A DNA stretch of 64,000 nt from an uncultured Planctomycetia bacterium. Lineage in GTDB: Bacteria; Omnitrophota; Gorgyraeia; 2-02-FULL-51-18. Of this stretch, positions 15,173 to 64,000 are shown piece by piece (position 1 is the first letter of the stretch; each line of letters opens with the position of its first letter). The stretch covers positions 18,705 through 82,704 of the forward strand of contig CAZXLF010000008.1 in NCBI GenBank assembly GCA_964642015.1, given 5' to 3'. The notes beneath the pieces are model-generated. The model saw only the letters and a list, made by a program, of their open reading frames with translations, was not told the DNA's origin and made no database searches. Both the position numbers and the translations under genes were made by a program.

Positions 15173-15187
15173 AAGAAAGATGCTGAC

Positions 15188-16930: not shown

Positions 16931-16938
16931 GATTTCCT

Positions 16939-19374: not shown

Positions 19375-19739
19375 GCGTCGAGAATGCGGACAACATGCTC
19401 ATGATAAGTTTTTTGGTCAGCTCTCAATACCACCGCCTGGCTCGGATAAAGCTCGGCTGTTTTCTTGAGCAGACTGCTCAATTGCTCCACACTGACCCTC
19501 TTTCGGTTCACGACCACAGTGCCATCCTTCAAGATATTGATCACGATCTCTTCGGGAGAGATCTTTGCTTCCGCGCTTGTTTGCGCCTGAGGCACGGCAA
19601 TGTTGAGTTCGGATTCAAAATTAAAATGCAGGAAGAGCGCCATGAAAAATGACAAGTTGATGAACAAAATATCGATCAAAGATGTCATCTGGATCACTGG
19701 GAGCGGTTTTACATATTCATTCTGTTTGAAACTGATCAT
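19320..19739 (-). CDS. exbD: biopolymer transport protein ExbD/TolR
   Basis: 139 aa. It has one N-terminal TM helix (TSLIDILFINLSFFMALF) and a periplasmic ExbD domain. Its 3' end overlaps the TPR ORF start by about 55 nt. Confidence 0.8.
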   Translation of the reverse strand: MISFKQNEYVKPLPVIQMTSLIDILFINLSFFMALFLHFNFESELNIAVPQAQTSAEAKISPEEIVINILKDGTVVVNRKRVSVEQLSSLLKKTAELYPSQAVVLRADQKTYHEHVVRILDACAKSKIWNISFATTREG

Positions 19740-19764
19740 CGGGGTCTCTCCGCGCTCGAAAAAG

Positions 19765-20502
19765 TTATTTGGAAATCAATTGCACGATCTCGGAAGCCGT
19801 CGCTTCGGCCGTCGAGGTGATCGTGCTGATCCTTCCTCTGAAATATGAATAAAAAGCGAGGCACGGTACCGCGATCACAAGTCCGAACGCGGTATTAATC
19901 ATCGCCTTGGCAAGTCCTTGAGTCAGAACGACCGGGTGGATCGTCCCCAGTTTGAAGTAGTTGAATGCGTCGATCATTCCTATAATAGTGCCCAAAAGAC
20001 CCAACATCGGCGCGATGACGGCCATATCGCCAAGATAATTGAGGTTCTGCCAAAGCTTTTCGATGCGCGCCTTGCCTTCATACTGTACCGCGCCTTCGAT
20101 CACGGCCTTGCCATGAGAAAGTCTGGATAACCCTTTAAGCGCGATCGATGAGATCATATTCTCCTGCTGCTTGCATACCGAAGTGGCCTTCTGGAACTCT
20201 TTTTTTTCCAACAGAAAAAGCAGGTTTTCTGTAAAATCGCGCGGCGCAAGTTTTTCAGGGTTAACATGCATGAAATGGTAAATGATCGAGGACACAGCTG
20301 CAACAGACAAAAGTCCTAAAAAGATCATGCAGGTACCGCCGGCAACGACCAGTTGCCATAACGTAGTGCCTTTGTCTGCTGTTTCGGAAACCGCACCTAC
20401 ACCGGTTTTGGCCGCGAAAGCGTTGTACCCGACGAACAGTATCGCAAGGATCAGCAATGGCAACACAAAATAAAGGAAACGAAATTTTTTTAACATATCC
20501 AC
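19765..20502 (-). CDS. exbB: MotA/TolQ/ExbB proton-channel family protein
   Basis: 245 aa. A signal/TM helix is followed by the ExbB core with GLLGTIIGMIDAF and a C-terminal TM helix. Confidence 0.85.
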   Translation of the reverse strand: MDMLKKFRFLYFVLPLLILAILFVGYNAFAAKTGVGAVSETADKGTTLWQLVVAGGTCMIFLGLLSVAAVSSIIYHFMHVNPEKLAPRDFTENLLFLLEKKEFQKATSVCKQQENMISSIALKGLSRLSHGKAVIEGAVQYEGKARIEKLWQNLNYLGDMAVIAPMLGLLGTIIGMIDAFNYFKLGTIHPVVLTQGLAKAMINTAFGLVIAVPCLAFYSYFRGRISTITSTAEATASEIVQLISK

Positions 20503-20809: not shown

Positions 20810-23800
20810 TTATGCAGCAGAACCTATCGTCTGTGTTGCTGCCTTGACCGCCGATATCCATATCGCCCATTCAACCGGTGCGATCTTCGGCAAATATTTG
20901 AATACCCCATCCACCAGCTTTATGAAACCAGGAAGTTTGTCGCTCAACAGGTCGAGCACCAACAAGATCTGGGCTGCCTGTAATGCACCGCGAGCAGAAC
21001 GCTCTTCACCACTCTTCAATTCAAGCAGAAGCGCCTTCTTCTCGGAGCTGATGACAATATCAGCTTCATACTCTTTCTCGTTGGCAATGAGTACAAAATT
21101 TTTGTCTTTACCGTTTTTATCCTTTCCGAGAAGACCTGGAATTTGGGACAATTTCTTTTGTGCGTCGGAGATAAAATAGACATTATTCCCAAAAATACCT
21201 TTGATTTCATCCAATTCACCATTTTGAAGACCTGCGAGGTCGGTGTCGGATATCAAGACGCCCGGTGTCACAGCTCTTGCTTCGCGAATGTCTCTTTGAA
21301 TATCAACCTTGTTATCTTTGAAAGCCTTCACGTCATAGAGCGCATAACCAGCTACTTTACCAGCGTTGGCGAGTTCTGCTAATCTGGCCCCCACAGCATT
21401 TATCTTCTTGATATCGACCCCATAAACTGATTGCACAAATTCAGGTTGTCCAGCCAATGAAACAGCTACTTTCGCAGTGATCGAATCTGAAATATCATCA
21501 TTGCCAACTAACGCGCCGATCTGATCAAATGAAGCTTTAAGATCCGCAACCGCTTTCTTTCTGGAAGCATCGTTGCTCGCTTTGGATGCTTGCGACAAGG
21601 CGGATGCAAAAGCGGGCACGATCTCATTCAAGCCGGTTCTTAAATAGGCTTGACGTGTACGATAATCCAAAGTGAGTGTGACTTCTGTCGGACGAGGTAA
21701 ACGCAGTTCGCTTAGCGATCGGATAATCTCGGTTCGGATAGATTGTTCTTGTTCAGGAGTAAGATTCTGCTCGAGCGCTCTTGTCAGCTCTGTGAAAACT
21801 AAATTACTGATCGCATTGAAAGTCGCCAATTCTTTATCATTCAGCTGTCTCAACGCATTGATAAGGTTTCGCTTAGATTCGGGAGATTCGATCGTCGATT
21901 TATCGATGATCAAAGAAAGTTTGGTCTTGGAATTCAAAGCTTCGTTCACGGAACCAAAGATTACGGCATTGACCTGGCCTTGCTCGGCGCCGATCGATTT
22001 TACAAAGGCATCAAACTTCGAACGCGCTTCTTCGTTCGCACTTTCAGGGAGCACAAAGCCGATGTTCAAAACTGGTTGTTGAGGCAAAAGCTGCGCACTG
22101 GGCAGCTCCTGTTTTTCAGCCAGTCGAGCGCCCTGTTGCTGCAGCTCGGTCAATTGAGTAATATAATTGTTCAGACGCGTGATCGCTAAATTTCCGGCAG
22201 CTGAGGCGCGCCCTTGTTTTGTATCAGTCAAATATTTAACTGCAGCTTGTACCGAGACTAATATGTTTCTCATTTGAGCAATAGCACGATTAATATGACC
22301 GTTGACATCCGTTTGGCGGCTCTCAATCGCTAATTGCAATTCTCTAATCACGGCGCGCGTGGGAACAACCGTTTTATCTAGATGCAGGCGGAAAAGAGGA
22401 TCTTGATGCTTCGAAATCGCTTCTTGGGGCGTTTGCCAATTGCCTAGTTCACCCATCGCAGCTAAAAATTCTGTGCTGATTGCTATTAATCTTTCCGAAG
22501 GTTCTATCCGTTCTTCTTTGGCTAAACGCGCGCCGGCAACAACATTGGCATTAGAAATATAATCAATGAGTTTTTGCCGCTCATCGATACCCCTTGGTTT
22601 TGTCAATTCCTTATCTTGGAACCAAACAAAAATAAGTGCCTCTCTTAACAATTCAGATACAGGACGTTCGGTATAAGCCTTATAAGTCCTTGTGTCCATA
22701 CCCGGATTATTGCTTTCGTCTTTCACTATCTGAGTAATTGTCTCGGCATGCGCATCTATTATAGATTCGCCCGGATAATCCGCTCCGTTCAATTCTGTCA
22801 TCACAGCGGTTAAGCCTCTAAAATTATCAATACCGGATACCTCTGACAAATTCAAAAGCGTTTGATCCAATCTTTGTTTCTCTCCGGCAGCCAGAACTCC
22901 TTCCAGAGATTCTTTTGATTCAATCCGACGTTGAGCAAGTCGCGCACCGGCAGGAGAAACTTTGAAAAGCTCCTCAGCGCCTTTCCCGGCAAATTTTTCT
23001 GCGAGCTGTTCTTTTGTCAAAAGCAGCGGCTCTGTTTGAAGCGCTTGATGCAATGTTGCCCAAAATGCAGGATTGATATCCAGATGTGTCAGTTCGATCA
23101 AACGATCTCCGCGATATCCGCCGGCTTCAATCTCGGCTTTAAGAACATTCGCTTCCCTCACAAAATATGGAGTGAGCACACCTTTAATATAACGATAAGA
23201 CGGACCGTAAGCGCCCGTGCCTTCATATGTGATATGAATGATCCCTTCTTCGGCATTAAGTCTCTTGGCTGTTTCAAATGCTTTGCTCCCCGGTAAAATC
23301 AGTTTCAATCCCTTGGGGATAAGCGCCAGATCAAGGTCCTGTTTCTTCTGTCCGGAAGGTAACAGACCGGTGCGCGGAACAAATTGTCCACGAGAGAAAC
23401 TGCCGCTTACGGCAAAGCCGTATATCTCCCCTTCATCCACTAACTGCTGAAGCTCATTGATCACACGACGCCACTGAGGATTATCTTCAAAATACTTCCT
23501 GATCGCTTCGTTTTCCGCCGAAAGTCTGGCACCTTCTGTTTTGGCCTTTGTTTTATCAAAGAAATCGCGCGCGGCATGGCTTGCGGTCAAGATCGATTGT
23601 TTCGCGCTTTCAAGATCCGGCGTCTGGAAAGTCACACGAACGATAAATGCTCCTTCAGGGGTCACTAAAAGCGTATTCGTGACCGCTTTGCCTGACTTTT
23701 TACCTTCATCTGGAATAAATAGAACGCGATGAAAATCATTTGCGAATTGATCTTCGAAGGTAGAGGGTGAAGCGCCTGTTACGCTTGTAATTGCGAGCAC

Positions 23801-26800
23801 ACCTTTGCCTTTGACCGCTTCTTTCGAACGTGCAGAATTAAAGATTTCGTCCGGCAAAAATTCGCGGTAGCGGGCTAATTCCTCATTAGTATATCCGTAA
23901 GCTGTCGCAGCGCCGTAATTCGACGCGGTCGCTTCCGATGAAACGAAGCTATGAGGGAATTGGGCATTCGGCCGGTTGGCGATCGCGATCGTAGCCGCTG
24001 TCGCTTCTGCGGAACCGCTGCGCCCAAAAACCAAAAGGTGTCTTCCATTCAGGTCCGCACCGATACTTGCAACCACACGCGGCAATAGATCGCCATCGCC
24101 GGGCGTTTGGATCTTAAGTCCCGGATATTGCGACTGCAAGGCTCTCGCGTCATTGATGATCTGTTGATGACGATGCTGCGAAATAGCCTTTTCGTAATCT
24201 TTCTGCAGATCTGCCGCCCTGGGCCCCAGGGTCAAGATGGTAGCCTGATTGATGAAATCGGATTTAAACGTTGTGAACTCAGGACTGTTCACATCAATGC
24301 CGAGAGCTTCAGCTTTTACTTTCGCTATCTTCTCTAAAGCTGTGCTCGGCAGATCGAACGGCGTCACGCCTGCATCACTTGGCGCATTAAAGCTGACACC
24401 TCCTATACGAAAGTTATCGTTGATCAGAAAACGATTACGGCCATCGAGCTGGCTCTGAGAATCCTCTTCAAAGAACGAAAATAACGAAGTGCTGTCCGTC
24501 GGCGTAGACACCGCTTCAGGAACGATCAATCCATTCGTCTTTTCAAGCGCATCGCCGACGAAATAAAGGATTTTTACTCCTTGAGAACGAAGATCGCTAA
24601 GATGAGTATTCAAATCCGTCACGCCGCCGTACGGAATCTTTTTACCTTGGAAATAAACGCTTCCTAAATCTAATGAGTACGACAGATCTCTTGAGCCTTC
24701 ATCGGCCAATATCGCAACCGCAATATTCGGATTATGCTCCGTAAAATACTGAATGCTTCTCTCGGCAAAGTGCACTGCGTTGCCATCAGCGACTTCTTTT
24801 ACATCTTTACCCTGACCAGCAAAAAGTATCGAACCAAACGCCTGGCTTGCAGAAGAAGCAACCGCGAACGACGTTAAAGGATTATTCAGTGCCGTCGAAG
24901 CGGATTCAGTACGCGTATCGCCGAGAGCTTTGACTTCGATCTTCTCTGCTTTCAGATTGTAAGGGTTGCGTTCGAGCGCTGGACCGAAGTTTTCTGGCAC
25001 ATTGACCGGGATGAATTCCGCCAGGCGCGCTCCTGACAAAGCAACTGAAGACTTGGTGCCAATAATTCCTATTCCTTCAATGTTCACGGACGTGCGGTTA
25101 TATTGCCAGCGGCCTTCGCGCTGAATGCGCTCGATAGCCCGGTTCCTGCCCGTCAACTGTTGATTCTCGGCTGTCTTCAAATCTTCAGGATTGGCCTTGG
25201 CTTGGTCCGCAGCGTCAAATACATCGATCGATTGGACATGCGAATCCTTGAGCCCAATGTTCAAAAAGAACGGGAGAGCAGGATTCAGGTTATTTCCGTG
25301 GACAAACGCGTTCTTCAGCAGATCATTGATAATATCCTGCACTTCGGTATTTGCGGACTCGCCTTCAAACGCAAAGTTAAGCTGGGATGATAAACTGGAT
25401 AAAGCCAAACTGACCGATTTATAAAGATATTGTTTAGGATATGCTTGCAGACTCGTTAAGTCTATCCTGATCGCTTTCCCTTCGCGGACCGCTCGGACCA
25501 ATTCGGCAACCTGGGATTGACTGTAAGCATTGTTTAAGTCAAAGCTCAGGATCTCTTTAGCAGTAGAAACGTTCCTAACGTGCTCCGATAAACCTAACTC
25601 ATTGCCTGCTAAACGAGCACCTTGCTTTGGAGTCGGAGTCACAGCGATCGTATATAGCGAATTTTTATTTTGAAGAATAAGTCCAAGTACTCTATCGTAA
25701 TAGAAGCTTAGCCCGCTTACCTCTTTTTCAACACCGGGAGCGATCGAGTAATTATGGCCAGTGGCACGAGGCGACTCAATATGAAAAACCTCAAGACCAT
25801 TGGTGACGGGATTAAAGTCGATCTTCCAAGCGACGCTAGATTCGGGTGCAGATGCAGGTGTCTCAGGCGATGAAAAAGCAACAAGAAGCGCAAAGCTTCC
25901 CTTGTCGGCAACAGGATAACGCCCGCGCTCTTGAGGGCTAAGCCTTTGCGGGGAAACAGTTATAGATTCTAGCCCCCTAAGGAAAGTTAATTTTGCCTCA
26001 GCGGCCGTCAATTTTTCAATACCGGTCAATTCACTTTCCAAAACACCCTGGCTGACGGCAACATTTACGATACGCCTGACCGTTTCCACACCAGTTGCGC
26101 TCGACAAGGATATATTTTCCGCAACGGGAAGATTCGATAAAGCTCTGTTCGCACTGACGATGGCCTGCTGTTTGACTTCTTCATTAGTCAGCCGAGCGCC
26201 CTGCGGACGTGTAGTTTCATATCGGGTCCGAGCCTGAGTTAAGTCATTGAGCGCCTTCGCCAATTCCACATGCGCCACTTCAACTTCTTTCTCAGCTCGG
26301 ATCGTTCGCTCTATTAATTGAATCCTGTTACTCGGAACCTCTCTAACATCAATGGTCTTCGATAAATAACCTTGCCTTTTCCACGATTCCAATTCTTGAA
26401 TAACTTGCGCTGCAGCAACCTGCACGCCACCAGCTTCTCTTGTATAAATTGTTCTATCCTGGGATCTAATGAATTCACCTCGTGCGTCTTCACTTGATTC
26501 AATTTGAGCCAGTTTACCGCGCGCCACTGGACCAGGGTTTTTTCTTAATTCTTCAAGAAGAGGTATATAATTAACTTGCCCGTAACTAGGCTCTCCTTGT
26601 GATTCTGAACCTGTCCTTAAAAGTGGGAGTAATTGTCCTAGATATCCGATCGTGCGGTTATCGACCCCTCGATCAGATGAAATACCGTGACCTGAAAAAC
26701 GATCCAGTATCGCCGGATTTCTTGTTAAGATGCCTCTGATTAAAATATCAAAATCTCTCCGGAAATTTTCATCTCTAAATCGCTCTGTAATGCGCGTCGC

Positions 26801-29800
26801 CCACCGGCTGATATCATTATTATCAGCGCCGCCTATAAACTTCTCTAACAGCCTTTCGGCCGTCTCCTCCTGGGCTAGCCGGGCTCCGGCTGCCATTACC
26901 TCTAAATTCTCTATAATTTTTTGAGCCGCGCCCAGCGCTGTCAATGTTAGCTCAATTCTTTCCTGTACACTTGTTTCAGGCCGTTTCGCTATCTCGTGGA
27001 AATTGTCAATGCTCTGTTTTGCCTGCTGAAGCTGCGGGACGCCGTTAAAAACATCTTCCAAATATAAGAGAAGATCGGAATGGCGGTCTTCATAATCCAC
27101 ATGGAATGACAGACTCCAATCCCCAACCGTACCTAGCGAACGGACATAGTCAACGCTTTCAAAAAATCCTTTATAGCCGGGCGTACTCACTTTAACGACT
27201 TTCTCGGTCAATCCGTTCTGTTTGTATTTCCAGAAAAACGGTGAAAACCTTTCATTGAGCCCGTCCAATATTCTTCTCGCCTCATCCTGTCCAACGGTCT
27301 CGATATTTCCCAAATTTTTTCCAGCTTCCACAACTTTTTCCCTCTTATCACTTTCTTCAACGACGCCGGCAAGGAACGAGATCATCTGCCGAGCGGTCCT
27401 ATCCACACTCACTTTTGGCGATTGGAGAAGAGCGTTACGCGCCATCTCTCCGTATTTTTCCTTATCTTGGTAAATTTTGCTGAAGTTGACCAGAGCATCC
27501 AGGAAACCCGTTGTGGTAGGTTCGCCTTTACTATTAAAGGGTACGTTGAAACCGTTGGCGACTGCCTCGTTGTGTCCATCATAAAATGTGACTGATTCAG
27601 GCACAGCTCCATCGTGGCTGGCGATGATCAAGGCGCCATTCATTTGCGCTTTTTGAAAACCGGTGGCAGACGCTTCGCGTCCATCATCCGCAAGCATCAC
27701 CGAGAAATCAGTTCCTTGAAATAACTCAGGAGCTTCCCAAATGTTATAATTATCAAAAAATATGACTCTCTCCTTCAGCCGGCCCGTTTTATCGTCGTTG
27801 ACCGCTCTTAAAATTCTGTAATATTGTGTCAGCCCGTAGCTATCATCCTGGTGGGTTCTACCTCCAAAAACGAACACGATGCCCGAGGCGAGAAATGCCT
27901 CTCTCATCACATCGTTCTCTAAAACATCGGCGAATCGTTCGAGTCTCTTATATTCCACAATTCTTCTCACCCAAATGCCGATCGGGTTTTTATTATTGAT
28001 GGTCTTCTTGGCCCATGCCGACCAATCGTAACCGTCTTTCTTTTCGGCCATTCGTTGAGCAAGAAATTCCACAAGACGTGCACGACTTCTATCTTTGGCG
28101 GCTAAAATCTGATCGTTACTCATTCTCCTTACTTTTTCCAGATCTTTGAATTCATTTTGAGGCCAATAGGTCGAACTTACGCCATTAGTCACAAACTTGA
28201 TCTTAGAAGAAAACTGTCTCAAGAGGTCCATCTCCTTCATAACTTTGGCATGTTTTTCAGCGACGCCAAACACGCCATCCGAGGCATTTATAATGAGAGC
28301 TGTTGCATCGATCTTCCCTGTTGTGCTGTCCCGCACAGGCATGGATTCATCATAATATCGTGAGTCCACTTGCAGATGTTTCAGTGTCTTATCATCCCAA
28401 TGAGGATGCGCGTACAAAAGCGGAGTATGATCGTTAAAAATATAACGAGTACCCTTAAAAAATGGGTCGTTCTTAAAAGCGCTTCTTGCTGTGTCGCCAA
28501 AAACTTGGTGATGAACCATCATCGCTGAAGCTTCGCTCATGATCGTGACATCCGGTTTTTTATCCAATTTTTTAAGCAACGCAAGCGTTCCGTGACCTAA
28601 AATCCAGCTGTGATCGAACCTTGCCTCCTGCGCGTTATCAATATCGCGGACACCGGGATAAACGACATTGACTTTAGCAGTTATAATATCTTTGCCAAGT
28701 TCAGGAGCCAGGAAATAAACAGCTGCTTTACCATATACGCCCGCCGGGGCTTTTAGAACTTTTACATTTACTTTACGTCCGTCATACATGTCTACGGTGA
28801 TGTCAAACACGTGTTCCATAAGGTCTTTTAGATGGTGACTTACATTTTCTTTTTCAAGAGTAAGCGAACCATCCGGATGCACCTTCTGCACCCAAACGTG
28901 ATCATATAACAAAGACACCCCTGTCACGTCAGCGCCAAGTTCGCTGAGCGAAATCACTCTTTCCTTCAGCAATGGCCCTATCCCTCCTACTGAAGAAGCC
29001 ATCGCCGCTTTACGCATCTCGATCCTTCTTTGCTCATCCGTCAAAGAGCGATCTTCTTTTAATTTCGTCTGAAGGAGCCCCAATAATTCTCCACTCAAAG
29101 CCATTTCCATCGTAACTTCAACTATATGTTTATCTTTAAGAACAGGGTGATGAGCTTCAACAAACGATTGAGCTCCAGCAAGCCGTGCACCAGCTTCGGC
29201 CCGTTTAAACTTGAGCCACATAGGAAGCCTTCTGAAACCGTTCTTATCAGCCATGGCTTCCTGCAGTTTGGAACCTGCTCGCGCCTCCGCAGCTAGAAAT
29301 GTATTTTCGTAAACTGCCTGGACATCGCCGCTCGTACCGCCAACAATCGCATCGGTGATCTCAAGATCCGGATGTTTTTGACCGATGGCGTGAAGCGCTT
29401 GGACTGCATCGCTCAGCGTGGGATTACCTCTGATAAGAAGTGTCACGATACGATGATCTTTGGTGGTGGCAAAAATCGTCATCGGAAGCTGATGGTCAGG
29501 GCCGGACCAGCCTAATTGATTTCCTTTGGTCGTCGAGCCACCGTTTGTAAAATCGATCTTGTCTATAACGCTTACCCCGTCTTTTAAGATGCGCACACCG
29601 GCGATCGCTTCTTTAAAAATAAACTTATCCGGATTTAAAGCATTACCGGCCGCATCATAAGGTTGGCCATTTTTCAGCTCAACGTCATGGATCCCCGCTT
29701 TGTCGGCATCGAAAACAAGGAACGAAAAAGTTCCATTGAGCGGTTCTCCGACGGTTTCATTCAGTCCCAGCGTGTCCTGAGGCTTCATCACAAGTTTACC

Positions 29801-32800
29801 TTGGTTCACGATCAGTGTATTTTTTTCCAGCCACAGACCTTGGTGGGAATTTGTAGCCAGAACAATTTGATCTTCGTCAGGAGCGGCCTGGACCGATCTT
29901 TGAAGATTCTCGCCTAGAAAATCCTGCGGTGTGATCCGCGCGGACGTGGTACCGAAACTACGATTCAAAACTTCAGGATGATAAACATTTTCCGCTTGGA
30001 TCTTGTGCGTATCTATAACGAACGCGCGGACTTCAGCGGAAGTTTCAGACGTGCTGATAGCGACATCCTCGATCGTCTCGAGACCGTCCACTTTTTTCCC
30101 TTGCTTGTCATTTAATTCACGTCTTGTAAAACTTCCGGTCACAGCCGCTTTTGTTGTCAGTCTCGCGCCTTGGGTGATTATAGCCGGGGCTGGTCTTTGA
30201 ACGATAAGCGCACCAGTGGGTTTTTCAAAAACAAGACGAACGGAAGGAGGCCCACTGCGCAGGATAGGAGGAGCCCCAAAAACTCTCGTCAATTCAGGCA
30301 CTGGCTTAAAGCCGGCCTGAACAAATCGCTCGGTGATCTTATCCATGCTTTCGTAAGTAAAAGGCAAAGGCATCCACTCGCGGAGGTTGAATAATACATG
30401 GCCCTGATAATCCTCCAAAGACAATAAAAGTTTCTGCTGTGCTTGGGTCAATTTCATATAATCCCTTGAAAGCTTCAGCGCTTTGTTTTTCCAGGGGCCT
30501 TCAGGCCAGAACTCAGCGTTTTTCAATTCTTTTTCAAATAAAGGTATAGATTGTTTTTTGTCCGCTATCAGAGTTTCAACGACGATCACGCGTCCGCCGG
30601 GTTCCAGGATACGAAAGATGTTATCTATCTTTTGTGTTTGAGTCTCCTCATCCATATGGTGTAGCGCCCATTTGATGATAGCCGTGTGCACATGGTTCGA
30701 ATCAATATAAATATCACCGCCTCTTTCTGGAACGTAATGAACCCTGCCATTTTCTGTTACAAGATCCTTTCGCCAATCGTTAACATCCGTCCCGAGTATG
30801 GTCGTATTATTGAACCTCTCATCTGCGGCTATGGCGAATGGAAGATCCGCTCGGCCGGTTCCGATATCGGCTATGATACCTTCATTAGGCAATATATCTT
30901 CGACCAAAGGCAACGCTTGCAACTTGGCAAGTTCCCTGCCGTGCGCGAACATGAGTTTACGCAATTCGAAAGGCAAAACACTCGCGGCTTTTCCCCTGCC
31001 TTGCGAAAACTCTTTAACAAACAGGTCCGCCAGGTCATACGGATCTCTTTCCCTGCCGCGTCTGTCTTTGTATGTCTTCAGTAGAAAATCCACCATCCGC
31101 TGCACAAGTTCCTCTCTGCTCATTTTCTCGCCTCTCAAGCTCACTGCTTGCGGATTCTTGCCAAACTTATAAAGCCCGGAGTTAGAAAGAATTTCCGTAT
31201 CAAAGCGGCGAAGAATAAGTTGAGCGAAAACATCGCGGACCGCTCGGTTTTCCAACGCAGGCAACGGATTGAAAGCAATATTTCCGCGCGGGGATATACT
31301 CGCTGCCAGGCGGGCTCCCTGGATCAGATACAACGCGCCGACAGCTTTATTCAAGGCATTTCTGTCAGAAGGAGTGGGGCTTGGACTCTCAGACAACAGA
31401 TAACTTTGATATCTACTTATGACGGATCCAATAAAATCGTCGATCTGCTCCCTTGTAGACCATTGTTTGCTTTGGTTGGTAAAGCTTACGAGGTCTTCTC
31501 TGACATGATAGGACTGGTCAGTGATCTCGCTGGCTAAAGTGGTCAGGATACCTGACACCTGATCCTGAAGACGAGAGAATTCAAAAACAGCCTTTGTTTC
31601 CGTAACAGCTGCCTTATTTACAATGGCATTATTACCATAATAGATCGCCACCGTATCGCCCCGTTTCCAGCTGCTATAATGTGAGGGAGTAACGGCTCCG
31701 TTCTGGCCCACAACACCGGATTTTTCATCGATAAGATTCAAATTGACTGTATCACCGTTGGGCAATGCCTGGAAACTGAGTCCGGCAAAAGACCAATTTT
31801 GATCGGTTAGTTTCAAGGTCTGTTCAAAAGCAGCGATCTGAGTACCGGCGAGCCGCGTGCCTGCTGGTGGCTGAGGTGCACGGCGAGTGTTGAAAAACTC
31901 CAACAAATCATTTTTATCCCTAAAATCTTTTATAGGATAAGCTTTCCATGGCTGTGCCAGATCAACGACCTCGATCAGATCGGCCGGAATTGATGTGCCC
32001 AAATAATCGGCGGTAAGATCACCGAATTGCTGAATACCATTCGATTCTCCCCGTTGAGGCTGCGCAAAAATAGTCGGAGCGTCTTTGCGGATTCGTATCG
32101 CAAAAGTATTATGTTGAGTACGTGGATTTTCGATAAATCCTAATGCAGATGGCGCATCCCAGAAGAAAAGATATTGAGAACTGTGCGTCAAAGAAAATGT
32201 CTCATCGGTCGGTTGCTTTAAAGCGGCTGAAAGACCGTTGGCTCGTATACTTTCAAACCGATCGATCTTTGCTTCATGATAGATATATTGTGCCAAACGT
32301 TCTTTTTGCTGATAGATCTGCTTAGCTTCGACAAGCCGTTGATGACCAGAAGAAACAGGACTCTCTTTGGCAAGTTTTTCATCGATCTGGCTGATCAAGT
32401 ACTCATGAAGATCCTTCAATAGCAACGTATTGCGGGCTACTTTTTCTTCTGCCGCTTTTCTGGCTTCGGGAACCCCTATGACATCCGAATGAGCACCGTA
32501 TGGAATTCCATAGGGCAGCGTCACGTGTTGAAGATAATAAATAGGAATATGCGGAATATTCGCTAAGGCGTAAAGTCTGCGATGCGCTGCTTCTCTTTCG
32601 ACCGCATTATCAGAATGGGCATACGTATCGACGCTACGGGATATCACTCGCTTCGCCGCTTCCACTAAAATATCTTTTGGAAGATTTTCTAATACCAAAT
32701 CCTGTAGAAATTGGCGAAGATGTTGGCTGACATCACTCGTATTCACGAGCAAGTATTGCGCGACCGCTTCGATCTGTCCTTCTCGAGTTGAATTTTGCGG

Positions 32801-35800
32801 GAAGGGCACAGATGGAACATATTCCCGATTATAAGGCAACTCAACCAAAGAAGCGGAACTTTGAATCCCAGGTCTTTCCGGATTAAGAATATCTTCTCCG
32901 GTACGAGGTAATTGAGTCACAAACAGTCTCAAATCCCTTGTATTAGGCAATTCCTTGCCTGCCAAACGAGCTCCCTGGATCGTAATAAGGTACCCTTGGA
33001 CTCGGACCAAGATGCGCTGATTCTGAGTATCCACTTCTACAAGCGATCCTAATCCTGGAGCGGATAAAAGCTGGCGTCCCAATTCCTCAAGAGACAATGC
33101 TTGAGGGGCAGAGGCAGCGATCTGCTGTATTTGATCTACGGCTTCATTGATGCGGACCCGGGAGATCGCCGGCTCATAAACTTTTCTTTCATATTCCGCG
33201 GCTCTTGAGTTCCATGAATCGTCATATTTAGCAGCCTGCTCGATCAACTGATTCCATTCAGGAGTCTTGTTCCAATAAATATTCGCCGCCTGGTTGACCG
33301 CTTGCAAAAGAGACCTAATCCTTTGATCGCGCGGTTGATTCGGATGAAAAGGTTCATAAGGAAAACCTACTCCGTTCCACTGATCAAAAAAGTCTTTCAA
33401 GCCTCCTGTCTTTGGTGCGATCACAGGTGTACCAAATTTATTCGCTATCTGTTGCGCAATACCCGCAGGCTCAAAATGAGAAGGCATTAAATAAGCGTCG
33501 ACGGAAGCATATAAACGCTGAGCGATCTTATGATCAAATCCGACAAGCACCGTCAAAACATCCGGATACCTCTTTGCCAATTCGACCAACTTGCTCTCGA
33601 TCGCTTGGCCTTCCGTATCGCCTTCCGTTGCGGATCCCTGGATCACAAGTCGGACTCTCTGCCCTTCTGCGCCTCGAACACCGCGCAACGCTTCCAATGT
33701 GCCTTCGTCGATATCGCCGTAACCTTTCTGTCCTGTAAATCGTCCGACACTGCCAATGACAAGATCCTTCAAAAATTCCGACTCAGGAACATGCTGCAGA
33801 CCGCCATTGACCACTTTCAATTTAGAAGTATTTATTCCTTCGCCCGAATTTATCTGCCGATAAAATGCCGTTTTATTTTGGAGATGGGCAGCGACCGCTT
33901 CTTCGGGAGTAAATTGTCTATAGCGAATATGGTCGTTATCTCCTGCCAACGCCGGTTCTGAAGAGGGCGGATGAGCTCCGCCGCCATTGAAGACCGCTAT
34001 CGTTTTACCTTCATCTCTCATGCGCTGGACCATTCCTTCAAATCCAAACGCGGTGCCTCCCTCTTGCGCTGACTTCGTCAACTCGGACAGATTGCCTTCG
34101 CTGACAGCCACAAGACTATCTGCGCCCAATAAAAATCCTTTGCCCAGAGAGATTTTATGTCCCGAAGTATTGTTACGATAATATTCAAGGCCATTATGCG
34201 TGTCAGTCACAAGTTTTGCTTCCAGATTTAATAAATTAGAAGAAGGGTTCTCATCGTGTATCACTTGCGCGATCGTTTGCCCGTTTCTTTCAAATAGGTC
34301 TACTCCGGGTTCCAGAACATGGTCTCTCACCAATTTTTGGATCAATTCATCATTCGGATTCACCAAAAGATAACCATTGAATACACCTTGATAAGCCATA
34401 TTGTGAGTGATATAAACTACGGCTGTTTTCGGAAATTGGCTGGCATAATTGTTCTTCGCATAGACGGGGATCAAGCCGGTTTGCCAATCGTTGGCATGGA
34501 TCACATCGACAGGCAATCCTAATTCGAACACCACTTTCGATAAAATTTCCGACTCGATCAAACCTCTCAAACTATCAGGTTCTTCATAAAGTTTCCTGAA
34601 AAGGATATTTTCCCGGTCTTCTAATAGATTATAGGTAACGCCGTTTCGCACAAAGGTCCTGACATCGATCTTCACAGAACCCCTTCCTACAGGGATCTCA
34701 AGCGTTTTCACCTGGCCTTCTTTGATCACTTTTCCAAAATTAGGCGCGATCAGGCTGACGCGATGTCCGCGCTGCGCAAGATTGACTGGCAGATTCTGAT
34801 TGTAATCAAACTGTCCGCCTGCTTTCGGCAATTCAGTTAGACCGCTTTCCATAGCTACGAATACAATGTTGCGCGGTGTTGTTGTTACATTTCCCACCGC
34901 CAATCGCGCACCACCCACCGTGACATTGGGTCTTTGTATGGATTCAAAGAATTCTTTGAGTTGGCGTTCATCTTTAAATTGAGTGATCGGGATCCCTATC
35001 CATGGATATAAAGGGTGGACGACCTCTACATAACTTGCAGGGACATTTGTCGCACGATAATCCCCATTGTCATCTCCGAGTTCTCCGCCGGGGCTGGGAG
35101 CATGCCAAACTGTCGGAGCAGTTTTAATGGCACGTAGTAAAAGGTCTCTCGAACCTTTTCCAAATTCGCTGTTTCGTATTTGATTGAACGCGTAAGAATC
35201 CGTGAAAAATATTGAGTCACGTCGTTCAGCGCCTTGAGGAATAAAGTTGATATCAAGCCCATGCTCTTTGATGCTTGCGAAATTTACAGAATTGGCGGCA
35301 TGTGAAATAAATTGGTCCAATTGATATTTCTTCGAAGCCGTATCCGAAATAGACGAAAGGAGTCCGTGAGCTCCAGGATTTGCTTCTTGATCGAGCGTTT
35401 GTAATCTTTGGCTGAGCGCCGCAGTAAGCGCATCATGGATCTGTTTTAATCTATCTTCGCGCGTTTGAGTGGGAACCAACGGACTTGTCAGCGGGAAATT
35501 CAACGGTTTACGCTGATAGAAAATTTGATCGCGATTAAGATATGCTAACGCGTAAAGACGACGGCGGGCACCTTCCACTTCGTCAGGATTTTTGAATTTA
35601 ACGATATTGTTAATATCTTGTGCGATGAGTCTATTGATGACTTCTCGAATAGAATCAATGACAAATCGATCCCATTCAGGCACATGCATGTAATATTGAT
35701 CCAGCGATGTAAATCTTGCCCATATCCAGTTATCGTTCGTCGATAAAAACTCGACCGCCGCCTGGATCGCAAGCTCACCTTCAGATGTGGCAGGGTTCTT

Positions 35801-53800: not shown

Positions 53801-56800
53801 GGGAGTTTTCTCGTCGCTAGCGCCCGAGTTGCCGGTAATATAGGTGTCTAATATTTTGTCCGCATTTCCATCAGAAACAATAGCAAAATTGGCCATTCCA
53901 TAAGTATAAGCACCATACTTTGAAATGTCTTCGCCGTCCCCAAAATATTCCTGAACTAGACCTGAAGGTAATGCGCGGCCTTTGAAATAGGCTAAGTATG
54001 TCTTAGCCTGCTCGGACAATTGTTTTCTCAGATCCCGGGCCAGTTTTTCGGCTTTTTGTTTGGCTTCTTGATTTGGAACAACTTGGGGTGTTTCTTTCTT
54101 AGCGGCAGGAGGCTGTTTAGGTGCGCCCGGTGGTGTTTGGCCTTGTGTCCTTCCGGCGCCCGTGAGCACGATCCCGAACAGAACAAATAAAATAGAGGCG
54201 GCGCGCATGAAGGTCTTATAAAATCCGGAAGGCCGGTTCGGGAACAATAAAACAGGAGAAGCTGGAGGCGCGCGTTCCGGTAAAGACGATAATTGATTTG
54301 TGGGAGGAAGCGAGTGCCCTCCGATATTACGCGCCGCTGCTTGAGAGATCCACATTGCCCAAGCCACAATGTCGGCGACCGCTTTATCTTTACTCGTCTT
54401 ACCGATCTCCCTTACTTGATCGGCCAGATTTCGTAACTCATTATTATTTTCACGACGCTGGATTCGAAGCCTCTGTTTCTCATCCTGAGATACCGCCACT
54501 GCAATGCTCTGATCAAGAGAAAGTTGCGCGGCCAGTAAAAAGCTCATTTGATCTAAAATTTGCTGGATGGCCTTCTTTTGGTTGTTGTCGATATTACTGA
54601 TATTTTTTAATAAGGACTGCACACCGTTCAGCTTTTGCTGGATCAAACGAGCATCCGATGTTTTCTTTGTCTCAACCGGCGTTATTCTATAATTCGCCGG
54701 TGCAATTTGGCTGACGATATCGAGATAGACTTTCGTTTGCTCCTCAAGTTGACTACTGATATTCTCCGATAATCCCGCATTTTTAATAGACTCTGAAACA
54801 GCCTTAACGTTGTACTCCAACCTGTCTACCAATTGACCGTGAGCAACCCATAGATCCGCCAACCGATTTTTTGCATTATACGATCCCGTAGCACGAAACT
54901 GATCGATGCTGTTTTGCAGATCACTTAACGCCGCAACAATATTTTCGATCTCGCCTGTAAGACCGCTCAAATTGGCGCTGGCAAGCGACCTTTGATTGGC
55001 TGACACAAAATCTGATAGATTACGGGCGGCTTCTTCAAGACCGATCAACGCCGCCACTCCTTCTGATACTTTCAGATTCAAACGATAACCGATCCATGAA
55101 GCTCCGACGACCATACCAATGACAGGTATGAACCAAGGCAAATTCAATATCCCTATCCATGCCAACGCAGTTCCTAAAATGGCTCCGGCGTATCCTAAGA
55201 AGAGTGCATTTTTGCCGCGGACGTTGAGATAATTGTAAGGCGCGGCAATCAAGGCTGAAAGGATGATCGGCACAATCCCCGCCGAAAATGCCCACGAAAT
55301 AAGCGTTCCAATCACTGCGCCGCTGAGCAGATGAGAAGCGATATTTTTAGCCTGCAAAGCCAATCTTGCGCCAGCCTTTGATTCAGCGATGATTTGCGCC
55401 TGTGCTTTCTGATTAGCATCCAATTCTGACTGAAGTATTTTTAAACGTCCTTCCGATTTTTGGACACCCCCATGCACCTCCCCGGCCCGGTAACCGACAT
55501 TACTTTTCAAAAACCAATCATAATCTTGCAATGCGGTTCTATTTTGCTCAGGTAATGCTGCAATCTTTTGTTGTAATTCTCCAACAACCTCATCTCGATA
55601 TTTAGCGTCAGGATAATTGAACACCGGTGGTAGGAATTCCGTGACCCGAAATACATTCCTTGGATAAGCCAAAGGAGACAAGCCGGCACTCCTTGGAGCT
55701 CCTTCAAGCCTTACGCCACCTTTAAGCAGAAACTCTAATTCAGAACCGAATACATTGGCATCTCCATTCGCCATGGCATTGCCGAACATTTCTTGTGCCC
55801 CGATAACCAAACTATAATCGGTCAGCTTATAAGAGGATGTGCCCAAAAAGATCTTCCCATCAGCGCTTGGAGTGATCGCGACAGATAATCCTGTGCGATG
55901 TTCCCATGCATCCCAACCAACCGTATAAAGAAGATGACGGCCTTCTTCTTTAGCGCTTTTAGCTTCCTGACTATCTTGATCCTCCCAGTACCAGATAGAC
56001 GGTAAATAAGGGCGAGCGCCACGAATATTCGCGAGACGCTTATTCATGTAATCAATATTTTGCAGGTACTCTTTATAAGCTTGCTGGATATTGTTGTATT
56101 CTTGCTCTGTCACATAAATCTTATTGGCGGACTGAATTTTATTATCTTTCAACAGTTGATAAATCTCGGGGTTGTTCTTCCTGAAATTCTCCCCATAAAT
56201 ATCCGCTGCTAACAATCCCAATTTATCCGCTCGTCTGACCCAATTCAAGCCAGCGATGACAAAATTGTCTTTTTGAGAAACAAGTACACGGTCAAACCTT
56301 CTTCCATACAGCAAATCATGACCTGTTTTTTCATCCCGCACAATCTTGAGATATCCATTAGCCTCACCCTTTTCTCCATCGATTTCGGCCATAACAGCTT
56401 CTGGCACTCCAGATCTGTCGAGATCTCGATAATATTTCGTCGACTTTTCCTTCGAAGGATCCGCATCCAGATCGATAACGAAATACCATTGATGTCTAAA
56501 ACCGGGCGCGGTGGGAGTATAGGATTTCCAAAATTCTCCGGGTCTCTGCGGAAAACGGTAATATCCTTTTGAAAAGGTCAGTTTGCGGGACGTGCCAAAA
56601 ACGGGAAGTTCATATTCGATCAGATCTCTGGCTTGTTCATAGGGCCGTCTAACCCCTTCTACACGAGCATCGACCATGGCGTAAAGTCCCAAACGCCTCC
56701 ATAAGTTCTCATAATCTTGCTGGGCTTTCGTTAATTCTTTTTGCGTTCTCGTGACCTGCTGTTTCAGCGATGCTTCAACACGCCTCAATTTTTCTAGTTC

Positions 56801-59800
56801 CAAAGCGCGAGTGACTCTAACTTCCTGGATCGCTTTTGCTCTTTCTGCTACAGCAGGCACAGGTACTTTATTTTCAGCTTTAAGTTTGTTGGCTGCGCTC
56901 TGCAAAACCACTGCCGTTTCAGGATTGTTTTCACGTAAAACTGGTGCGCTCCACCACAGATAACTCGAAAAAGCCAGCACCGTCGCTAAAGCATTCAAAA
57001 TAATCCTTTGAGTATTTTGTACTATATTTAGGCCTGCCAACCGAGCTCCCTCGGGCGCGCCCTTTTGCTTTTGCTGCAATTCCTCAATCTGGCGCTGAAC
57101 ATCTTCTATTTGTCTTTGGATTTGCCTGATATTCCGCTGCTGTCTTTGTCTTTCAAGTTGCAAAAGACGCCCAACATTGGCCCTAGATTCGCCAGAACCG
57201 GTCCTTCGGATCAATTTGGACCCGATCGCATCAACGACACTTCGGCTGGCGATGATCTGGTCGATGCGCTCAGAAAGTTGCTTAGCCTCTTCAGGAGTTT
57301 TGGCATTATTGAGCTGATCGGCGAATTTTACGATCTGAGCATCATTTTCATCGCCAAAAACTTTTAATACCGTATCTCCTGTAACAAGCTGATAGGTCGG
57401 CGGCGCGTCAGAAACTCGCACATAAACACCTCCGTGTGTGGCGGCATGTTTCTCGGCTTGAGCAGCAGCAACCGTTTTGCTGTTCGGAGCAATTTGGATC
57501 CAGCGCGTCTGAAGAGAAACCGTATTCTGCGGTGACGACACGCCCAACGCTCTAGACCAAAGTGCGCCGAGCTGTGCTTGAGCTCCCTGCAGACCGCCAA
57601 GGACCTCCTGCGCGTTTACGGGAAGACCGTTATTCAGTCTCGTGCGGCTAAGGTCGACCCCTCTTTCCATCCCGTAAAGGATATCGTTCATCTGTTTAAG
57701 GAATTGATCCCGTAACGTCGGAGCTTGGGGAGTTCTTTGAGGCAATCCGCGCGTGACACCGTATAATTTGTCTCCGCTCTCTCTGGTCAAATATTCACGC
57801 CACTCGGTCGTCATCGCGGCGTTTTCTCCAAAAATGACCTGATTAGTCGAAACTGAAAAATTCACACCGTTAATACGGATCGGTCCGGCTTGGTCGATAC
57901 GAAGCGGGTGCAAGCTTTCAGGACTTAATCTGCTGAAATCCACTGCAAAATAATAAGCGTAATAATTCTGGCCTTCTTGAAAAACGTGCTGGACACCAGG
58001 AATTATTTCTCCGGCGTTCTTTTTGTCAAAAGTTTCTTTAGAAATTTTCACTCTCGCCACGATCGCGGGATAATTATCGCGTCTTAAAGTGCTCAATGCA
58101 TCCGGATCAGAGCTTTTTTCTTCGATCAGATTGCGAGCCGGTACGTCTTCTCCCAAACGCGATATAGGAAAATCGACCCCATCATAAAGCGCGACGATCT
58201 GACCGTCCGGAGTGATCTGCGCAGCGTTTGCATAACGAAAATAAGTACCGTCCGCCGCCTGGTGACGAAAACCTGCGGCGGCTCGTTCCACAACAATCGA
58301 TTCAGCGGGCATCCCTTTGTCAGGATTGACATATTGACCTGTGATCTTTTGGTTGGCGTTGATACGGCCCCCATAATAACGGAACGGTCCATAAAAATTA
58401 CCGTAGTCATAGATATTATGGAAACTCAGCGGGCCATTCAATAAGAACGAACGAGTTTGTAGGAACCTGTCATTTTTTCTCGCTGTCTCAAGCTCTCTCG
58501 AAACTGCTGGCACTTGGGCAGCAGGCGCTGGCGCAGGTTTAAGATAAGTAGCGGGTGCGATCCCATAAACATCGTTCAAGTGTCCGGCGATTTCTGCGAT
58601 GCGCACACGGCGAGCCAGATTAAAAACATTCTGTTGAAGTGCCAATGTTTCAGTGTCCAACCTATCATAGAGCGCGCGTAACCGGTTTAGTTCCGCCTGA
58701 GCAGAATATGCAGACGCTTTATCAGTTGCTCTTCCCGCAAGCGCCGCGGATTGGCTATTGTAATAATTATTCATATATACCAGCATGCCGTTAATTCCCA
58801 GATACGCTCGCTGAACGTTCGTACCTTCCTTTTTATCTTCAAAACGCACAAAGATCGTCGAGTCCTTGGTCAATGCCTCGCGAAGCTCCGGCGTAGCGGC
58901 GGCCAGCAAACGTTCCTTAACAGCCTTATCCTTTGCAAATTCTGAAAAAGGCTTGATCAGTCCCATGTCCGTAGTCTCTATTAAACGAAATTCGCCCGGC
59001 TTCGTTTCGACAAGTCCCGCGCCAATGTGAGTCTGCAAAAGCATATCCGCAACAGCTAGCTCGTTGATCAATCTATTTATCTTTTCAGGATTAATTTCTC
59101 CGATCTGTGCTAATTCTGAATGAATAGGATGAGACGGCGTGGCAAAAGCATTCAACACATCCAAGTAAATCTGAAGCGATTTAGACTGGGCGGCCGCATC
59201 TTTGGGTGCTTTTTCAGACTCCATCTGAGCTAATAGATCTTTCTGAGCGGCTCTTGCTTTTTCGATAGCCTGTTGAAGCGTCTGACCTTGACGCTCTCCT
59301 TTAGCTGTTGGTTCCGAAGTCGGGATAACGGCGGCACGCCCCATATTACCAGTCGCATTGACGATCTCTTTTTGGAAGAAATTCTGAAGCGCATTCCGAT
59401 AAGCTGTTTCTTCGGCAGATAATTTTTCCTGAACAACGGCCTGACGTAACTCAAGCGGTTCAGTCAAGGCTACTTCTGCCGTTATAAATGAAACCACGAA
59501 AGGATCTGATTGATTTGAATATTGGCTGGCTATCGCATTGTCACGGTCGATCGAAAACTGTATGGGAACATTTCTACCGTTTTGGAGTTGAGTCATCGCA
59601 AATCTGACGCGCGCAATTTCCCGTTCAACCTGCTGGACAGCCTGCATCGCCGCAATTTGCGCTCTTTGGTCAGCTATCACTTGTTTACCGGCTGGCGGCT
59701 GGAACGCTTGATCCAAAAATGGCCGTACGAACGGTGACTGGCTTCCGCGGAAAATATCATAACCGGTAAGCGGCCTAAATTGTTTAGCTGTAGGCGCAAG

Positions 59801-64000: not shown

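Follow-up and report, generated by a model that had tools for sequence, protein, structure and literature searches.

Giant proteins of Omnitrophota that exceed 10,000 amino acids (aa; 10 kaa) and combine many Pfam families, GT5/GT1 domains and transmembrane (TM) segments in one chain were described recently (bioRxiv 10.64898/2026.06.07.730766; West-Roberts et al. 2023, bioRxiv 10.1101/2023.11.21.568195), the former paper defining a 'multi-enzyme metabolic cluster' class among them. Both papers describe domain content, and one of them proposes cleavage by C39 or S8 peptidases with unknown cleavage points. Two recent surveys of giant proteins (10,000 to 147,000 residues) leave open whether these are single chains or are cut, and a survey of huge proteins names unknown protease motifs as an obstacle. 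Here we analyze a stretch of 64,000 nucleotides (nt) of contig CAZXLF010000008.1 (positions 18,705 to 82,704 of the forward strand; hereafter the window), most of which is occupied by a giant open reading frame (ORF), in whose product a pentapeptide, GARLA, recurs between the modules.

20810..63991, minus strand: giant ORF, 14,393 codons (14,393 aa)

Like the published giants, this protein is larger than 10 kaa and contains many Pfam families including GT5/GT1 as well as TM-like segments; furthermore, its closest named homologues are from Omnitrophota, and it belongs to the multi-enzyme metabolic cluster class. Some other Omnitrophota giants have C39 domains, whereas this one contains neither a C39 nor an S8 domain. 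A recurrent junction motif is mentioned neither in the giant-protein papers (bioRxiv 10.64898/2026.06.07.730766, 10.1101/2023.11.21.568195) nor in a 2026 complete-genome preprint, and a literature search for GARLA as a motif returned surnames only and no described motif. Multi-enzyme giants of Omnitrophota are thus already known; what appears to be new is polyprotein-type junction punctuation with a lineage-specific code in a megaprotein of a cellular bacterium.

The cleavage sites of viral polyproteins co-evolve with the virus's own protease. As in these polyproteins (e.g., those cut by picornavirus 3C between Q and G, or by potyvirus NIa at heptapeptides), many unrelated complete proteins are encoded here in one ORF, short junction peptides lie in the linkers, the motif depends on the lineage and its flanks are unconserved. 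Unlike them, the giant is encoded in a cellular bacterium among housekeeping genes (heme synthesis, iPGM), carries a cargo of carbohydrate metabolism and has no detected embedded protease. Bacteria possess multi-domain precursors as well, since Porphyromonas gingipain precursors and the staphylococcal Atl autolysin are cut at defined sites into functional proteins. However, these secreted precursors are divided into 2-5 products by self-processing or by cuts after Arg/Lys, whereas for the giant ~24 products are predicted, most of them enzymes found in the cytoplasm of other bacteria, and the code has 5 residues. In cyanobactin precursors (PatE), lineage-specific pentapeptide recognition sequences flank each cassette and are read by the proteases PatA and PatG. 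The giant resembles these ribosomally synthesized and post-translationally modified peptide (RiPP) precursors in that repeated sequences of 4-5 residues, putative recognition sequences in the case of the giant, bracket the cassettes of a bacterial precursor; however, cyanobactin cassettes comprise 6-8 residues and those of the giant 130-2400 residues (an approximately 100-fold difference in scale), and neither an S8 domain in the giant or its neighbours nor S8/DUF protease genes at the giant were found.

The regular expression G[AT]RL[AST] matches the 14,393-aa translation 24 times (18 GARLA, 4 GARLT, 1 GARLS and 1 GTRLA), just as estimated in a first-pass annotation made from the sequence. 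Residue composition predicts 0.18 matches (Poisson log10P = -41.9 for 24), and 2000 residue shuffles of the protein gave 0, 1 or 2 matches each. When all patterns of 3-5 residues were ranked by enrichment in an unbiased scan, GARLA came first (log10P -39), and the motif is absent from every other frame and ORF of the window. At position -1, A (9 sites) or Q (8 sites) is present in 17 of the 24 sites, in accordance with the Q/A noticed earlier, and position -2 is enriched in P/T/A. An alignment of windows around the 24 sites, proposed in the annotation as a way to an extended consensus, revealed no information at any other position; the motif, with the consensus [AQ]GARLA, is a 5-6-residue island in unalignable linkers. 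The tandem GARLAPTGARLAQ that had been pointed out is real (aa 6975-6987, nt 43034-43069). Internal duplication was considered as the origin of the motif and rejected: self-BLAST at E 1e-4 found nothing, and only the modules M9 and M11 (see below) are paralogous.

The sites are encoded with all four Gly and all four Ala codons, Arg is specified by AGA (8) or CGN (16) and Leu by TTR (8) or CTN (16). As every synonymous codon family is used, with both Arg and both Leu families represented, the conservation is at the protein level, and the earlier statement that different codons encode the peptide each time, so that it is not a DNA repeat, holds. Indeed, at 10 junctions orthologous in relatives (described below) 37 of 50 motif codons differ synonymously and one non-synonymously (A/T at the permissive fifth position). 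Judged from these codon comparisons, the motif is under strong purifying selection at the protein level. One could nevertheless read the 15 nt as a nucleic-acid signal, that is, an internal ribosome-binding/start signal, an RNA-processing site or a scar of cassette recombination: GGA GCN can be taken as a Shine-Dalgarno-like GGAG, and TTG/CTG is found at the Leu position of some sites. However, a Shine-Dalgarno core with an in-frame start occurs near 3 of the 24 sites versus a random mean of 2.9, Met is depleted downstream, and instead of the nucleotide-level conservation of a repeat or a recombination scar we found synonymous variation that is saturated both within the ORF and between orthologues, the peptide being fixed. 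The codon data and the lack of Shine-Dalgarno-plus-start enrichment effectively exclude this reading, to which we attach next to no credence.

The 24 sites are given below; P0001, L085p and similar designations stand for giant ORFs from other assemblies. Four of the seven DNA positions quoted in the annotation are correct and three were off by 1-10 nt (34888-34902 should read 34898-34912, 31846-31860 should read 31847-31861, and 25013-25027 should read 25019-25033).

57035..57049, minus strand: site aa 2315, GARLA, follows a coiled-coil-like QQKQK stretch
55358..55372, minus strand: site aa 2874, GARLA; a hydrophobic (TM-like) segment starts 15 aa downstream
48206..48220, minus strand: site aa 5258, GARLT, in a block 62% identical to L085p, which has DARLA there; the weakest junction candidate
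43034..43069, minus strand: tandem sites aa 6975 and 6982 (GARLAPTGARLA), after the glucan-synthase module
42125..42139, minus strand: site aa 7285, GARLA, N-side of the DUF4922/HIT-like module
41042..41056, minus strand: site aa 7646, GARLA, between the DUF4922 and UDPGP modules; orthologous in L085p, L002p, P0004 and P0002 (RAEVR)
37784..37798, minus strand: site aa 8732, GARLT, between the UDPGP and fucose-pyrophosphorylase-like modules
35894..35908, minus strand: site aa 9362, GARLA, start of the dark module M9
34898..34912, minus strand: site aa 9694, GARLA, 14 aa ahead of the first residue matched by the GT5 (GlgA) Pfam profile, in a low-confidence segment of the structural model
32960..32974, minus strand: site aa 10340, GARLA, after the GlgA module, in a low-confidence segment
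31847..31861, minus strand: site aa 10711, GTRLA, end of M11 (paralog of M9)
31304..31318, minus strand: site aa 10892, GARLA, N-side of the methyltransferase module
30155..30169, minus strand: site aa 11275, GARLT, after the methyltransferase module; GARLA in L085p
29177..29191, minus strand: site aa 11601, GARLA, N-side of the phosphorylase module; homology to P0001 starts exactly there
26873..26887, minus strand: site aa 12369, GARLA, after the phosphorylase module
26186..26200, minus strand: site aa 12598, GARLT
25607..25621, minus strand: site aa 12791, GARLA
25019..25033, minus strand: site aa 12987, GARLA
23519..23533, minus strand: site aa 13487, GARLS
22934..22948, minus strand: site aa 13682, GARLA
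22520..22534, minus strand: site aa 13820, GARLA
22118..22132, minus strand: site aa 13954, GARLA
21377..21391, minus strand: site aa 14201, GARLA, the last site, 192 aa ahead of the stop codon

Two of these sites have further equivalents in relatives. The orthologues of site 7285 lie at L085p 3336, L002p 526, P0004 643 (PARLA) and P0002 3829 (RSELR), and junction 9694 reads RSEVR in P0002, GARLA in P0003 and L002p, GARLS in P0004 and RTSP in P0010. L085p also holds a tandem similar to that of the giant (GARLATKPEGARLAT).

Division of the protein at the sites results in 25 segments, and every enzyme recognizable with Pfam is located wholly inside one of them. Seven enzyme families, each confined to one inter-site segment, make the ORF a string of several complete unrelated proteins, as in a polyprotein. 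The modules assigned are as follows (SAM, S-adenosylmethionine).

43070..48220, minus strand, aa 5258-6974: GT48/FKS1-like 1,3-beta-glucan synthase with ~9 hydrophobic TM-like segments
41057..42139, minus strand, aa 7285-7645: DUF4922 with a HIT-like HxHF motif
37799..41056, minus strand, aa 7646-8731: UDPGP-type nucleotidyltransferase
35909..37798, minus strand, aa 8732-9361: fucose-pyrophosphorylase-like protein
32975..34912, minus strand, aa 9694-10339: GlgA-type glycogen/starch synthase (GT5 + GT1)
30170..31318, minus strand, aa 10892-11274: SAM methyltransferase
26888..29191, minus strand, aa 11601-12368: alpha-glucan phosphorylase (GT35)
20813-26887, minus strand, aa 12369-14393 (C-terminal 2025 aa): nine orphan modules of 134-500 aa each

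The positions of the sites relative to these modules agree with what had been read from the sequence. Each Pfam domain lies within a single inter-site segment; the GT5 match begins 15 residues into the module that starts at site 9694; sites follow the methyltransferase (11275) and phosphorylase (12369) modules. The duplicated module mentioned in the annotation corresponds to the paralogs M9 (aa 9362-9693) and M11 (aa 10340-10710; 26% identity, E 5e-22), which are both bounded by sites, each copy ending ~5 residues short of the next one. Sequence searches of the Protein Data Bank (PDB) with the giant matched only GlgA, phosphorylase, FKS1 and UGPase. The glucan-synthase module was recognized by Pfam (Glucan_synthase, E 5e-23) and by yeast FKS1 structures (E 1e-6), and its orthologues in P0004 and L085p are ~62% identical to it. 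Note that the GT48/FKS1 family is mainly eukaryotic; here it is present in a bacterial protein.

The GlgA module of the giant matches free-standing GlgA homologues in extent (P0013, 623 aa; P0016, 607 aa). AlphaFold2 (AF2), run on aa 9352-10360 with an alignment of 56 sequences, folds GlgA at a predicted local distance difference test (pLDDT) score above 90 and puts both flanking sites into segments with pLDDT<50 (model residues 334-351 and 988-1009). Site flanks in the giant are less hydrophobic than random positions (0.276 vs 0.319 +/- 0.017) and enriched in disorder-promoting residues; a short selected junction motif is thus found in accessible linkers, as in polyproteins. That the sites represent inter-module punctuation is well supported. 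Of the earlier idea of an inter-module linker or cap, the linker part stands (Pfam, BLAST blocks, pLDDT), and the structural cap does not, for the motif has no extended consensus.

For the C-terminal 2025 aa no homologue was detected in a search of 5.8 billion proteins or in the syntenic orthologue, and their modules are orphans with very fast turnover. The last 2533 aa of this 15,285-aa orthologue have no BLAST-detectable similarity to the giant, yet they contain five GARLA and one GARLS.

Besides the giant, eight further GARLA-punctuated giant-ORF fragments were recovered by protein and locus searches, so that the same punctuation, which the annotation had suggested looking for in other giant proteins, does recur.

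P0001: 7625 aa, 11 sites, log10P -17.0
L002p: 4580 aa, 10 sites, log10P -19.1
L085p: 7034 aa, 9 sites, log10P -15.6
L099p: 2533 aa, 6 sites, log10P -12.5
P0003: 2727 aa, 7 sites, log10P -13.2
P0005: 2039 aa, 5 sites, log10P -9.6
P0004: 3412 aa, 3 sites plus 2 PARLA variants, log10P -5.0
P0007: 2051 aa, 2 sites, log10P -3.2, weakly punctuated

No k-mer is more over-represented than the GARLA motif in P0001, P0003, P0005, L002p, L085p and L099p, and P0004 (top pattern ARLAS) and P0007 carry it weakly. An earlier metagenome scan, performed with a 48-aa profile of the GlgA N-terminus, found nothing. With the relaxed pattern [GP][AST]R[LM][ASTV], the giant together with P0001, L002p, L085p, P0003, P0004 and P0005 contains 73 sites in 41,810 aa; their spacing has a median of 366 aa (interquartile range 195-612) and ranges from 100 to 1200 aa in 86% of the intervals. 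Homology among the giants is restricted to single modules and starts or ends at sites; of 24 BLAST high-scoring segment pairs, 18 have their start no farther than 30 aa from a site, as compared to 9.6% for random positions. Relatives with ~62% identity differ in module order, the motif being retained on the N-side of each orthologous module. In junction alignments the pentapeptide forms an island of identity, and the surrounding linkers contain indels and show no residue conservation.

Closely spaced duplicate sites (7, 9, 20, 25 and 26 aa apart) are present in the giants and resemble redundant cut sites or, alternatively, spacer peptides that would be released. A 15-residue spacer between two sites is conserved in two giants, L002p (aa 4512-4536, GARLS-TKASESLTRPTRTLE-GARLV) and L099p (aa 1917-1941, GARLS-IKASESLTQPALTLA-GARLA), and is not found in the 14,393-aa protein; this spacer may serve for docking or be released as a peptide. 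L002 (CAYJXB010000021.1), whose modules are 47-63% identical to those of the giant, comes from a bin labelled 'uncultured Planctomycetia', whereas the chromosomal neighbours of the giant are Omnitrophota-like. Either the label of this bin is wrong, or the system reaches beyond Omnitrophota within the Planctomycetes-Verrucomicrobia-Chlamydiae (PVC) group.

Other giants carry different peptides at their junctions. P0002 (NCBI, Candidatus Omnitrophica) has no GARLA and contains 11 R[AS]E[VLM]R sites (aa 3829-7510; 0.06-0.12 expected). RSEVR is located ~20 residues before the start of its GlgA and RSELR right after the GlgA end; furthermore, RSELR and RAEVR stand at the two ends of its DUF4922 module, i.e., at junctions that have GARLA/PARLA in the giant, L002p and P0004. 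P0010 possesses nine RTSP sites (0.03 expected, log10P -18.8), one on each side of GlgA, and P0018/L003 six [AGS]SSP sites, one immediately after GlgA. In a bootstrapped neighbour-joining tree of GlgA modules, the RSEVR protein P0002 is nested in the clade of GARLA users with 100% support, which implies a concerted motif switch at all junctions, with the caveat that the tree is one of modules, which do shuffle. As far as can be read from these sequences, the punctuation is a lineage-specific code (GARLA, R[AS]E[VLM]R, RTSP, [AGS]SSP). The APAAP runs of P0048 were considered as a further punctuation and rejected as low-complexity sequence.

These replacements bear on the possibility that the motif is a passive linker element (a hinge, a helix cap or a co-translational folding pause) which insulates domains without any specific reader. 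The location of the sites in linkers, the hydrophilic, disorder-promoting flanks and the low pLDDT are all expected of such an element. Nevertheless, five invariant residues kept by strong purifying selection are more than a passive linker requires, ordinary linkers of the same proteins are hypervariable, and a concerted replacement by an unrelated pentapeptide at at least 11 junctions of a nested lineage would be unexpected. We consider a passive linker improbable.

Since the motif lies in flexible linkers, is selected at the amino-acid level, is independent of flanks and modules, marks the borders of gene-equivalent units and has been swapped between lineages, it behaves as a recognition site for a sequence-specific, co-evolving reader. 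The closest analogy is provided by the cleavage sites of viral polyproteins, and we therefore favour proteolytic processing: the chances appear slightly better than even that the GARLA-type sites are recognition sites of a co-evolving endopeptidase which cuts a polyprotein. That the reader is a protease, that it cuts, which bond it would attack and where it would be encoded we infer rather than observe. The earlier proposal of processing sites that release modules is strengthened, short of proof, by the selection on the motif, its persistence through shuffling and its wholesale swap, and no protease has been identified.

In the proposed mechanism, the giant ORF would be a polyprotein precursor whose [A/Q]-G-A-R-L-[A/T/S] sites are read by a dedicated sequence-specific endopeptidase, most likely encoded elsewhere in the genome or past the window edge. 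Cutting of the nascent or finished chain in its flexible linkers would release up to about two dozen proteins of ordinary size (median inter-site distance ~366 aa): a membrane-embedded glucan synthase, sugar-nucleotide-forming enzymes, a glycogen synthase, a methyltransferase, a glucan phosphorylase and many orphan proteins. The ORF may then be regarded as a protein-level operon with fixed stoichiometry.

Several observations weigh against proteolytic processing. No Pfam peptidase was found in the giant in whole-protein and per-module scans up to E 0.5, nor a peptidase domain in P0001-P0005, P0010 and L002p, and scans of the giant, P0001-P0005, P0010 and L002p for HExxH, HxxEH, GDSGG, subtilisin and GxSxG signatures were empty except for a chance GNSGA. 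The genes next to the giant include no protease candidate, and beside the giants there is no conserved protease gene and no neighbour common to the loci examined; a neighbouring DJ-1/PfpI gene was rejected as a protease, as its AICAAP sequence is of the DJ-1 type and it lacks the PfpI Cys-His pair. No convincing punctuation was detected in the fragments at hand of P0008, P0011, P0014, P0037, P0048 and P0082, among which P0008, P0011, P0014, P0048 and P0082 are GlgA-bearing giants. Long N-terminal stretches are site-poor, the first 3,000+ residues of P0002 and of L085p containing no site at all, and some fusions have no motif, e.g., phosphorylase-MalQ (P0001, ~aa 5225) and the head-to-tail GlgA-GlgA (P0005, ~aa 1417-1430). 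Finally, the four motif types share no obvious scissile-bond signature.

The negative protease searches would suit a motif that is never cut, namely a linker pentapeptide docking an adaptor, scaffold, chaperone or TPR-type partner which organizes or regulates the intact megaprotein. A short, sharply bounded island in flexible linkers is what such a partner would bind, lineage-specific switching fits any co-evolving reader, be it a protease or not, and an 811-aa TPR protein is encoded three genes downstream. However, the TPR/ExbBD/VWA neighbours are not kept beside other GARLA-type giants (a Ysc84 gene is there instead in the syntenic relative), tandem sites separated by as little as 7-9 aa would be unusual for a docking motif, and docking does not require module-sized spacing, placement at gene-equivalent boundaries or survival through module shuffling. 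Docking is thus unlikely in our opinion, and still the rival to be taken most seriously.

Known processing systems do not account for the punctuation either. C39 processing after a double glycine is similar in that the G-A of GARLA is a permitted P2-P1 pair. Unlike C39 substrates, the sites have no upstream hydrophobic leader pattern (positions -12 to -2 are almost uninformative), the conserved R-L-A would be on the prime side, RSEVR, RTSP and SSSP lack GG/GA, and the giant has no PF03412 match. The absence of a detected protease, together with a short motif on the N-side of each module, could also speak for a separation that needs no protease, by autoproteolysis or 2A-like ribosomal peptide-bond skipping at the pentapeptide. 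However, the motif provides neither an obligatory Ser/Thr/Cys nucleophile nor Asn-Pro, Asp-Pro or NPGP-type chemistry (its consensus being [AQ]GARLA), features of intein, Hint and SEA junctions and the 2A consensus D(V/I)ExNPGP are absent, no Hint/intein Pfam match was found in the giant, which contains 2 Cys in total, and from a mechanism that depends on the universal ribosome one would not expect changes between GARLA, RSEVR, RTSP and SSSP in related giants. Such self-separation is very improbable. Tested against the defining features of C39, 2A, intein and RiPP systems, the punctuation of the giant belongs to none of them.

A ~460-aa N-terminal module with invariant IH(I/V)QDAH and GGFH occurs in P0001 (aa 19-480), P0010 (aa 74-532, preceded by a signal-peptide-like segment) and P0082 (aa 52-504), and is absent from the window. 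Its assignment as a Tiki/TraB/ChaN-like protease was not supported (faint Pfam match, E 0.14; no PDB profile match), and an AF2 model of it (pLDDT 66) gave no significant Foldseek match.

The chromosomal setting of the giant is that of an ordinary bacterial gene. Downstream genes on the same strand encode ExbB, ExbD, the 811-aa TPR protein (third gene), a VWA protein, GT4 and a HemD-HemE fusion, with HemH, HemY, GST, a TrmA-like methyltransferase, ACAD, DJ-1, a PD-(D/E)XK nuclease, MsrA, a DHH phosphoesterase and iPGM further on.

14042-20502, minus strand: ExbB, ExbD, 811-aa TPR protein, VWA protein and GT4, directly downstream of the giant
12071-14038, minus strand: HemD-HemE fusion (uroporphyrinogen-III synthase + decarboxylase), 655 aa

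Two independent Logan assemblies show the same 3' end of the giant gene followed by the same neighbours, and the HemD-HemE protein has an identical entry in NCBI and Logan records. In the syntenic relative JGI Ga0209726_10000190 (L099), HemDE is 72% identical and a giant gene, called at 15,285 aa, occupies the same position. Given its cellular neighbours, the Logan assemblies and the syntenic relative, we take the giant ORF to be a genuine gene on the chromosome of a PVC bacterium which probably belongs to Omnitrophota; the closest named homologues of the giant (Candidatus Omnitrophota/Omnitrophica) and of HemD-HemE (Candidatus Omnitrophota) are from that group. A phage or mobile-element origin was rejected, the neighbours being heme-biosynthesis, iPGM, MsrA, ACAD and other such genes with the same synteny in the relative. 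The nine nt 5' of the ATG (GAC GGC CGG; window 63992-64000) contain no stop. Because the frame is open to the window edge, the true start is perhaps outside the window, the N-terminus is uncertain and the protein may be longer than 14,393 aa.

Some further features of the locus and the protein deserve mention. The fused HemD-HemE architecture is common to >100 database relatives, many labelled Omnitrophota. At positions 8104-10004 of L099, a single Ysc84-domain gene replaces ExbB/ExbD/TPR/VWA, the remaining synteny being kept. In its site-free N-terminal region the giant has a weak LacI/helix-turn-helix-type match (E 2e-4, below the Pfam cut-off; aa 564-606, ~62174-62302, minus strand), and IARLA (one mismatch, aa 584) lies within helix-turn-helix-like sequence (IARLAGVSESTV) and is not a junction site. 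The giant also avoids Cys: only 2 Cys (aa 373 and 6168) are present in 14,393 aa, in comparison with 1.1% Cys in 17 neighbouring ORFs (binomial P ~1e-65), and the 'EPCG' motif of GlgA, with its usually conserved Cys, reads 'EPAG'. Cys is likewise scarce in P0001, P0002, L002p, L085p and L099p (0-2 Cys per 2.5-7.7 kaa), and the RTSP and SSSP giants, with 0.3-0.6% Cys, avoid it less strongly.

The junction motifs represent the first concrete candidate cutting sites for the question of whether giants are chopped into ordinary proteins. With their help giants can be divided computationally into candidate mature proteins whose structures could then be predicted, and the motif type set against the protease repertoire is a co-evolution signal that could identify the enzyme across the ~200 complete Omnitrophota genomes. 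A more general proposal, which we regard as plausible while judging it somewhat less probable than its opposite, is that giant ORFs of Omnitrophota are protein-level operons, virus-style polyproteins that would be cut at a lineage-specific pentapeptide code by a co-evolving protease outside the current profile libraries. In that case no record-size 'giant proteins' would be present as such in the cell, and their real proteome could be predicted from the code. If confirmed, the system would exceed in size every polyprotein system known from cellular organisms and be a source of new sequence-specific proteases.

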